Origin: Escherichia coli | GTDB taxonomy: Bacteria > Pseudomonadota > Gammaproteobacteria > Enterobacterales > Enterobacteriaceae | NCBI RefSeq assembly: GCF_046105845.1 | Contig: NZ_CP151004.1 | Direction: 5' to 3' (one strand) | DNA length: 64,000 nucleotides | In this document: positions 412-1,302 of the stretch, in pieces | Layout: each line of letters begins with the position of its first letter | How positions within the stretch are numbered: position 1 is the first letter of the stretch | Notes under the pieces: generated by a model | Database searches by the model: none | Told to the model about the DNA's origin: nothing | Seen by the model: the letters and a program-made list of their open reading frames with translations, nothing else | Made by a program: the position numbers and the translations under genes

Positions 412-1302
412 TTAGTTTTCATCTATATAATCCGCTACCCAATCTGCACCAAAATAACCAGCTGCACCAAAAACAATTCCGCCAATAATCCCGGTAGCCA
501 CTGCTCCTGGCCCAGTAGTAACACCCAGGGACGCGCCTATCACTGTTCCAATTTTAGCACCAGCTACTGCTCCTCCCCATCCTCCAATTTGCCTTATTGC
601 TTCTGCACCTATAGGTTTTATGCTTTTTGTTTCAAACGATTTTTCAGTTGCCTGTTCTAAATCATATGCAGTGAAAAAAATACTAAAAACTTGTACGACA
701 CGCCCGGCCTTAACAATGTTTTGAGTCGTTTTTAGAGACTCTGGTGTAAAAATTGTTTGTGCTGGTACTTTTCTACCTTCGATCAAGACCTCTTTATCAA
801 TATCATCAACATAGCCTGAAATTTTTTCAACACGCTTAGCCAAATGAGGGTATTGTTTCTTATACTCCTCAAGAGCAGTAATAATCTCTGCGGTCGAGAT
901 TAACTTCAATCCGGCATTTTTTGCTTTGTGAACATCAATAAATATGGTTTTCCCCTCAAATCTCGGAGAGCCATCAGGAAATATAGAGCTTGTAGAAATC
1001 AACGAGGATTTGTTGTTCCCCATAACATGTTCTGCTACAGTAGTGGGTGCTGAATAATCTTTTGGCATCAACCCATAGCGTTCAGGCTCTGTTTCTGATA
1101 ATAATCTAAGAGGATCCAGATTCATCTTTGTCAGGTAGGGACTATTTGGTGAAGCATATATTTTTCTGACAAGAAAGCCATCTTTTCCCGGTTCATCGAT
1201 AACTATAAAAAAGAAACCTCTTGCAGGCATTAAGGGTCCTAATATATCGTGATTTGAATCAGGTATATCATTTGTTCCTACTGTATTCTCAGATATCACC
1301 AT
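412..1302 (-). CDS. candidate VgrG-associated T6SS effector with C-terminal glycine-zipper-like hydrophobic tail (function unknown)
   Basis: 296-aa ORF whose start overlaps the vgrG stop by 7 bp (translational coupling). AT-rich. C-terminal about 55 aa is glycine-rich and hydrophobic with repeated GxxxG spacing (GGWGGAVAGAKIGTVIGASLGVTTGPGAVATGIIGGIVFGAAGYFG). I do not recognise the N-terminal 240 aa. Confidence 0.5.
   Translation of the reverse strand: MVISENTVGTNDIPDSNHDILGPLMPARGFFFIVIDEPGKDGFLVRKIYASPNSPYLTKMNLDPLRLLSETEPERYGLMPKDYSAPTTVAEHVMGNNKSSLISTSSIFPDGSPRFEGKTIFIDVHKAKNAGLKLISTAEIITALEEYKKQYPHLAKRVEKISGYVDDIDKEVLIEGRKVPAQTIFTPESLKTTQNIVKAGRVVQVFSIFFTAYDLEQATEKSFETKSIKPIGAEAIRQIGGWGGAVAGAKIGTVIGASLGVTTGPGAVATGIIGGIVFGAAGYFGADWVADYIDEN

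Follow-up and report, generated by a model that had tools for sequence, protein, structure and literature searches.

A probable type VI secretion cargo toxin of Escherichia coli that joins an ADP-ribosyltransferase-fold domain to a glycine-zipper tail

What does the gene directly behind vgrG encode in a type VI secretion system (T6SS) cluster of Escherichia coli, when annotation describes its product only as a "hypothetical protein"? The gene occupies positions 412..1302 on the minus strand of a 64,000-nucleotide stretch of contig NZ_CP151004.1 (assembly GCF_046105845.1), the whole of which is called the window here. It starts with ATG and encodes 296 amino acids plus the stop, and its product is identical to WP_000236948.1 of E. 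coli 536, which lies between vgrG and a 205-amino-acid "hypothetical protein" in the T6SS cluster of that strain. In the window, the preceding vgrG (1296..3785, minus strand) would be the effector-carrying spike gene; its product of 829 amino acids bears the Pfam domains Phage_GPD, Phage_base_V, T6SS_Vgr and DUF2345. The evidence presented below favours, with a probability of about 0.62, a T6SS cargo toxin composed of a leader, an ADP-ribosyltransferase (ART) domain and a glycine-zipper tail, accompanied by an immunity partner and carried on a mobile cassette.

The enzyme part of this putative toxin is an ART-fold domain of the R-S-E clade, as judged from conserved residues and predicted structure, and it covers residues 25-195 (718..1230; all effector coordinates are on the minus strand). 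An earlier reading of the DNA letters alone, hereafter the sequence-only reading, had recognised no enzymatic motif in the N-terminal 240 residues, a view which gives way to the R-S-[D/E]xE signature found here. A core-only alignment of 54 homologues, the most distant at 22% identity, has just four columns without variation: R46 (codon 1165..1167), the Arg of the R-S-E triad; H92 (1027..1029), a His that falls between this Arg and the Ser motif; S103; and E171. The S-T-S motif, S103-T104-S105 (988..996), keeps its last Ser in 53 of the 54 sequences, with A or T as the middle residue. The [D/E]-x-E motif, D169-K170-E171 (790..798), begins with D in 30 sequences and with E in 24; the clade of the window protein is D-K-E and more distant members are E-x-E. 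A structure model built from 30 sequences gave a core (residues 40-190) with a predicted local distance difference test score (pLDDT) of about 90 and a poorly defined tail, and a domain-only model reached a pLDDT of 92.4 and a predicted template-modelling score of 0.83. In the model, R46 stands at the end of strand 43-48, the S-T-S motif in the middle of strand 101-105, and E171 opens strand 171-175. The domain is assigned to the R-S-E clade because its predicted core has the split beta-sheet of NAD+-binding ART folds and its conserved residues occupy the catalytic positions of that clade, namely the Arg at a strand end (beta-1), Ser-Thr-Ser in mid-strand (beta-2) and the acidic motif at a strand start (beta-5), and R15, S54 and E100/E102 of the toxin TreX have been described in matching positions (PMC11606950).

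Furthermore, the closest structural neighbours of the domain are R-S-E clade transferases, and it carries a two-helix insertion (137-169) in addition to the invariant His. The Rhs toxin chain 9zdm_B was weakly matched (E 0.0028) by a profile of the effector family run against solved structures, and the alignment covers the H...S-T-S and QEVLI motifs. The match to Scabin had an E-value of 1.2, and similarity to the cholera/pertussis group and to Scabin/pierisin is not detectable beyond the motifs. From sequence, predicted structure and gene order, we infer that the domain is enzymatically active. Relatives in the R-S-E clade modify FtsZ, DNA or other substrates (PMC11606950). A pure NAD+ glycohydrolase (NADase) activity is possible.

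The rest of the protein, residues 196-296 (415..717), forms a predicted membrane module, in which a linker joins a hydrophobic segment (200-213) to a pair of glycine-zipper helices flanking a TGPG turn; the zipper proper spans residues 240-286 (445..585). A Gly/Ala-rich C-terminal tail with GxxxG spacing had been noticed by the sequence-only reading, and counting bears it out. The last 61 residues (236-296) hold 16 Gly, 10 Ala and 8 overlapping GxxxG motifs, a number which only 73 of 10,000 random permutations of the tail residues attain. In 30 homologues, G248, G252, G256, G260 and G264, which make an i+4 ladder, are invariant, as are G271, G275, G279 and G282. The tail is the best-conserved region of the protein (pairwise identity of 70% versus 57% for the enzyme domain) and is kept irrespective of the delivery scaffold. 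It may therefore be argued to act after delivery and to face an unvarying counterpart, for example the lipid bilayer or the tail itself. Membrane insertion and translocation is the favoured role, held at roughly even odds, and the zipper is more likely such a device than the main killing activity; a share in killing through damage to the membrane is an alternative to be taken seriously.

Both the ART domain and the tail are present in 237 of 270 homologues, most exceptions being fragments from short contigs. The idea of the tail as a module freely shuffled among many toxins was mostly rejected, as tails on other domains occur in only three to five proteins. Those other, unrecognised domains are found in P0257 (locus L064), in P0267 and P0270 (L065-L068) and at 1559-4321 of L061. 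A tail-fused domain with the motif YYAWD...H.N..G and an eCIS_core N-terminus comes from an unknown metagenomic organism and a Ktedonobacteria metagenome-assembled genome, and P0257 adjoins a TcA/TcB-like gene.

One library yielded 344 homologues of the effector at E<=1e-3, and another yielded 374. Many are 55-70% identical, from Enterobacterales, Pseudomonas, Burkholderiales and Vibrionaceae among the several phyla covered, which marks the reading frame as a real gene; more distant ones belong to Bacteroidota, Myxococcota, Desulfovibrio, Planctomycetota and others. Some relatives are named "glycine zipper family protein" by NCBI, and a plasmid collection held only two distant copies. Moreover, the unit of ART domain and tail forms the C-terminus of longer proteins containing Rhs repeats with DUF6531, Bacteroidota Hcp (TssD), eCIS_core or LysM/peptidoglycan-binding regions. 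Such N-terminal scaffolds are standard carriers of polymorphic toxins, and the effector is very probably a secreted antibacterial toxin.

The gene order points to the spike as its vehicle. On the minus strand, the junction of vgrG and the effector gene reads CTGGAAAAATGGTGATATCTG, in which the effector ATG (1302-1300) and the vgrG TGA (1298-1296) share ATGGTGA; the 7-nt overlap given by the sequence-only reading is thus read directly. The Pfam domains of VgrG stop at residue 743, and the last ~65 residues (765-829; 1299..1493, minus strand) make up a transthyretin-like (TTR) domain, the putative docking site, which is part of the AT-rich cassette described below. In VgrG1 of enteroaggregative E. 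coli (EAEC), the TTR domain is the part binding the Tle1 cargo. Residues ~767-809 of the window VgrG align to the TTR region (777-819) of EAEC VgrG1 in PDB 6sjl, and the TTR domain of that protein has been described to begin after residue 778 (PMC10715212). Additionally, the last 63-67 residues of the window VgrG are 40-59% identical to the ends of PAAR proteins preceding the effector in other genera. Neighbourhoods were read in 54 loci from species-representative genomes and in several assemblies, with open reading frames scored by profiles built in this analysis. The upstream gene is VgrG in Enterobacterales and Vibrionaceae, and a PAAR protein of about 183 amino acids in Pseudomonas, Burkholderiales, Desulfovibrio and others; in many genera, the effector directly follows a VgrG or PAAR protein with the shared end domain of ~65 residues.

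A possible counterpart of the TTR domain lies at the start of the effector. The leader, residues 1-24 (1231..1302), carries the motif TN-x4-S-x2-D-I. Across the family, this stretch of ~24 residues has an overall pairwise identity of 33%, yet it keeps the motif T-N-x4-S-x2-D-[VI], and T10 and S16 hardly vary among 30 homologues. Of 35 loci in which a TTR-bearing spike gene precedes the effector, 33 have the motif; of 8 loci lacking such a gene, where the ART domain is fused to another carrier, 7 do not have it. As the motif was defined after the alignment had been seen and the loci are related, this co-occurrence is only suggestive, and the leader is considered as a candidate docking peptide for the TTR domain. 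With the spike-gene neighbourhood and the toxin-domain fusions on its side, the proposal of a VgrG-dependent cargo effector, already made by the sequence-only reading, is strengthened; the protein can almost certainly be counted among the T6SS cargo effectors that depend on the spike.

Some loci show variations of this arrangement. Two tandem PAAR-TTR genes precede one effector in Paraburkholderia (L031 285-1396; L032 2887-3977). In some Pseudomonas T6SS clusters, the triplet of PAAR, effector and partner genes sits between tssE and tssF and is followed by an extra conserved gene of 169 amino acids with a faint CarboxypepD_reg match (L002 7517-8026; L017 5508-6017). An orphan triplet of the same kind was also seen far from any T6SS cluster.

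Downstream of the effector lies the partner, a candidate immunity gene. Its ATG is at 422-420, overlapping the effector 3' end by 11 nt, and its first 140 codons (1..422, minus strand) are in the window before the gene leaves at the left edge; in E. coli 536 it encodes 205 amino acids (WP_000856463.1). Of 56 effector genes, 49 have a member of this family as their immediate 3' neighbour, in the same orientation and in most cases with an overlap. Its product ranges from the 205 amino acids of E. coli to a Trp-rich core of ~70 amino acids in Myxococcota (PPxPW...QG...W.P[FY]W.SL), and a search with 19 diverse members gave no Pfam or NCBIfam match. The partner has no hydrophobic segment (maximum 19-residue Kyte-Doolittle mean 1.03) and no signal peptide. 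The family was not found near the four non-ART tail loci (P0257, P0267, P0270 and L061), searched in all six frames to an E-value of 10. The partner therefore appears to follow the ART domain, which would fit an enzyme inhibitor, and it is probably a soluble cytoplasmic immunity protein. The sequence-only reading had implied that the zipper itself is the toxin, a picture against which a soluble partner tracking the ART domain and not the tail speaks.

Several loci bear the marks of loss or duplication. In Duganella sp. 1224 (L057 3779-4171), only the last 56 tail residues are left, fused to an apparent transposase fragment, and an intact partner gene follows, which may be an orphan immunity gene retained after toxin loss. 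Decayed effector copies are present in Lelliottia and Enterobacter (L040, L045, L053). An Aquimarina contig (L035 122-1227, 3617-5236) has two effector-partner pairs about 2.4 kb apart.

Base composition and genome comparison outline the unit which appears to move. The GC content of the effector reading frame is 39.5%, compared with 58.4% in the vgrG core (1601-3785) and 51.7% in the window, confirming the earlier remark on an AT-rich gene unlike the T6SS core; the composition count also agrees with the remark that the protein has zero Cys. The fall in GC starts inside vgrG, ~200 bases before the gene end (the last 300 nt have 42.6%), and the DNA downstream of the effector (1-411) has 31%. Of 5426 complete E. 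coli genomes, 41 match the first 1700 bases of the window at 98.8-99.5% identity, the uropathogenic strains 536 and F11 among them. The effector is thus rare in complete E. coli genomes (under 1%), yet it is widespread across bacteria. Genomes sharing positions 1-1700 carry a more diverged cluster (about 95% identity). In E. coli genomes whose cluster is of the window type, homology to the window sets in only at ~1500, and the first 24 kb are not matched over their whole length by any complete E. coli genome of the collection. The homology breakpoint at ~1500 coincides with the GC fall inside vgrG, and the last ~65 vgrG codons, the effector and the partner are therefore taken as one cassette (GC 31-43% versus 58% in the core) moved between clusters. 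Docking domain, toxin and immunity gene would accordingly travel together as an AT-rich cassette swapped between T6SS clusters. The T6SS cluster of the window adjoins tRNA-Asp genes and an rRNA operon (17399-17475, 25621-25697, 29191-29385); the context read in 536 comprises the T6SS genes tssK to tssM; and in E. coli DETEC-S792 a cluster copy with the same effector gene lies beside three tRNA-Met genes.

Further features of these clusters were seen. A 57-bp tandem duplication (8263-8387; 2.2 copies, 98% match) lies inside the reading frame 7182-8891 (minus strand), an OmpA-family (TagL-like) T6SS gene, and doubles 19 residues (PWLLWSGLSGSPLPEKAHS); the TagL-like protein has 569 amino acids in the window, and the corresponding 1653-nt genes of E. 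coli 536 and O158:H23 encode 550. In E. coli 536, a second vgrG lies past the window's left edge (L001 2984-8757), and the C-terminal region of its product shares 60% identity with the last ~100 residues encoded by the first. Between this second vgrG and tssM come three "hypothetical" genes (262, 306 and 404 amino acids), an uncharacterised cargo set which O158:H23 also has behind its only vgrG. In DETEC-S792, the closest genome over the effector gene, the vgrG preceding the effector is annotated as frameshifted (L063 46030-48524), and a further module of vgrG, DUF4123, DUF3304 and DUF2235 (Tle1-like) genes lies upstream.

Taken together, these observations suggest a course of events. The effector would be co-produced with VgrG and the partner, as both gene junctions overlap, and the partner would keep the enzyme domain inactive in the producer and its sister cells. 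The leader would dock the effector on the TTR domain at the end of VgrG, and the spike would be fired into the periplasm of a neighbour. Since an ART needs cytoplasmic NAD+ and the protective partner is predicted to be cytoplasmic, the enzyme would have to arrive at the cytoplasmic face of the inner membrane in the prey. The tail, a predicted hairpin of two glycine-zipper helices, may insert into that membrane and help the ART domain to cross. There, the enzyme would use cytoplasmic NAD+ to modify a target of the attacked cell; destruction of NAD+ is less likely. The nearest precedent for translocation by such a tail appears to be Tde1, a toxin which needs its GxxxG repeats to enter the prey and makes the prey membrane permeable with them (PMC10240207), and the transmembrane helices of Tse6 and Tre1 would share the logic.

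Several results weigh against this preferred reading. Searches with the effector sequence found no NCBIfam family, only chance matches in Pfam (Nup54_57_C and TraT at E 0.4-1.4, searched to E<=10) and, in the PDB, a best match at E 0.1 to an unrelated kinetochore protein. No existing ART-family model in Pfam or NCBIfam matches, and the domain was thus missed by annotation, being too distant from all modelled families. Of the checks which the sequence-only reading had proposed, profile search (Pfam, NCBIfam) gave nothing significant and structure prediction gave the ART-fold core. The Asp at the first position of the D-x-E motif is acidic but is not the canonical residue of the [Q/E]-x-E motif at the start of beta-5 (the ADP-ribosylating turn-turn loop), and transferase chemistry could be altered towards NADase activity or another acceptor. 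The membrane role of the tail is burdened by a 19-residue Kyte-Doolittle mean that peaks at 1.59, a borderline value for a transmembrane helix, and by a low-confidence pLDDT of 40-55 in the model. As for the partner, its coupling to the ART domain was judged on only four kinds of non-ART loci, and one locus (L056) has a complete ART domain and tail without a partner of the family. Additionally, the soluble ExiAB neutralises EsxX by sequestering its glycine zipper (PMC12744356), so the solubility of the partner is not sufficient to establish the enzyme domain as the toxic part.

That precedent also opens the way to a different account, in which the tail is the toxin, forming ion-conducting pores or depolarising the inner membrane like Tse4, Ssp6 and EsxX, the N-terminal domain is a non-catalytic loading or targeting domain and the soluble partner sequesters the zipper within the producing cell. 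The high conservation of the tail, its statistically unusual GxxxG ladder, its presence on other N-terminal domains (P0257, P0267, P0270, L061) and the ability of the Tde1 zipper to permeabilise membranes unaided (PMC10240207) would suit it. A mere loader, however, would not need ART catalytic residues that are invariant in 54 diverse sequences, nor would retention of both parts in most homologues be expected to accompany it; the partner family is missing where the tail joins non-ART domains, and no membrane-embedded immunity protein was adjacent to the effector in any locus read. This account is very unlikely. Dual action, with enzyme and zipper both toxic and zipper permeabilisation also admitting the enzyme, draws on all the evidence for the ART domain and on Tde1, whose zipper inhibits growth independently of the DNase and also translocates (PMC10240207). 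It is nonetheless rather unlikely, as a single conserved protective gene is found and tracks the ART domain.

The same ART-fold domain may instead be an NAD(P)+ glycohydrolase depleting NAD+ like Tse6, Tne2 and Tne5. Several T6SS ART-fold toxins are NADases, Tne5 being an example (PMC13285283), and in this clade Asp takes the first acidic position; the nearest structural neighbours are, however, R-S-E clade transferases, and the S-T-S and [D/E]xE motifs are of the transferase type (PMC11606950), which leaves this activity quite unlikely. Scarcely credible is a non-secreted adaptor or membrane-anchored accessory of the T6SS, although the C-terminal membrane-like segment and the location between vgrG genes recall one. 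The sequence-only reading had kept both forms as alternatives, but an adaptor of the DUF4123, DUF1795 or DUF2169 family is contradicted by the Pfam and NCBIfam searches, which matched none of these families, and an accessory protein by homologues that are terminal toxin domains of Rhs, Hcp and extracellular contractile injection system (eCIS) proteins and by a partner gene which is almost always present. The orphan triplet far from any T6SS cluster argues likewise, and occurrence in 41 of 5426 complete E. coli genomes suits variable cargo over machinery.

The preferred reading, an ART toxin with a translocating tail, bears on a wider problem. How T6SS toxins acting in the cytoplasm cross the inner membrane is poorly understood, and few cases have been studied (the Tse6 helices and the Tde1 zipper). 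The effector family would offer a compact, conserved and widespread case, in which an NAD+-dependent enzyme is permanently joined to a glycine-zipper hairpin, and a previously unnamed immunity family comes with it. The TTR domain, on VgrG or PAAR, together with a short leader could be used to load foreign cargo. Moreover, presence of the gene in the well-studied uropathogenic strains 536 and F11 makes genetics feasible. More tentatively, and with less than even confidence, the C-terminal module of ~100 residues may be an autonomous, portable and receptor-free device for inner-membrane translocation, coupled with a transferable loading code. If so, one device would serve T6SS-i (VgrG/PAAR cargo), T6SS-iii Hcp fusions in Bacteroidota, Rhs cages, eCIS and LysM-tagged toxins; an enzyme domain, folded or refolding, would pass from periplasm to cytoplasm without a prey receptor; and the code would consist of the ~24-residue leader docking on a ~65-residue TTR domain fused to VgrG or PAAR.

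The family and its architecture appear to be undescribed. No published description was found in the literature searched, including effector surveys of Salmonella, Enterobacter, Serratia and Shiga toxin-producing E. coli, with subscription-only papers outside the scope and a match to the unnamed 'STox' Salmonella families left undecided. The nearest known enzymes are the R-S-E clade T6SS transferases TreX, an Rhs toxin of Xenorhabdus bovienii, and Tre1 of Serratia proteamaculans, both modifying FtsZ. The window effector shares ~18% identity with them and differs in its insertion (137-169), its invariant His and its D-x-E motif. It is also a separate cargo protein with a C-terminal zipper, not an Rhs or PAAR fusion, and its partner is neither TriX-like nor, having no Pfam match, an ADP-ribosylhydrolase like Tri1. 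Pertussis S1, EcPltA, LT-A, CARDS D1 and the DNA-modifying ARTs of the Scabin/pierisin type are further removed; they are exotoxins which rely on B subunits or different domains for entry and act mostly on eukaryotes.

Regarding the tail, repeated GxxxG motifs in a secreted antibacterial protein are shared with Tse4, Ssp6, the EsxX C-terminus and CdzC/D. Those are small membrane-only toxins, and Tse4, Ssp6 and CdzC/D have membrane-embedded immunity proteins; in the window, the zipper is appended to an enzyme and the sole conserved partner is predicted to be soluble. The membrane-embedded immunity of EsxX is provided by ExiCD (PMC12744356). Closer is Tde1, a T6SS DNase of Agrobacterium tumefaciens, as it likewise combines a cytoplasm-acting enzyme with GxxxG repeats in a cargo effector. 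However, the zipper of Tde1 is N-terminal, shorter and overlapping the region bound by its adaptor (Tap1/DUF4123), whereas that of the window effector would be a C-terminal two-helix hairpin, its enzyme is of the ART fold, its translocation function is proposed by analogy and no DUF4123 adaptor gene is present at the locus. Prepacked PAAR (prePAAR) effectors of the Tse6/Tre1 type resemble it in that an NAD+-dependent toxin carries its own hydrophobic helices across the inner membrane, and for Tre1 both PAAR and transmembrane helices have been noted (PMC10763514). Their helices are N-terminal, PAAR-fused and Eag-dependent; the window module is C-terminal, no Eag (DUF1795) gene accompanies it, and the combination of prePAAR motif, transmembrane helices and PAAR is not in the effector, PAAR or VgrG being a separate upstream gene.

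For loading, the closest parallel is the EAEC VgrG1-Tle1 pair, since the C-terminus of the window VgrG aligns to the TTR domain of 6sjl and the effector gene is directly downstream. The window cargo is an ART-fold toxin and not a phospholipase, and the TTR-like domain is also found on small PAAR proteins. Each principle thus has a precedent, and the effector may best be regarded, by analogy, as a combination of a Tre-like ART with its immunity protein, self-entry as in Tde1 and Tse6, and TTR loading as in Tle1.

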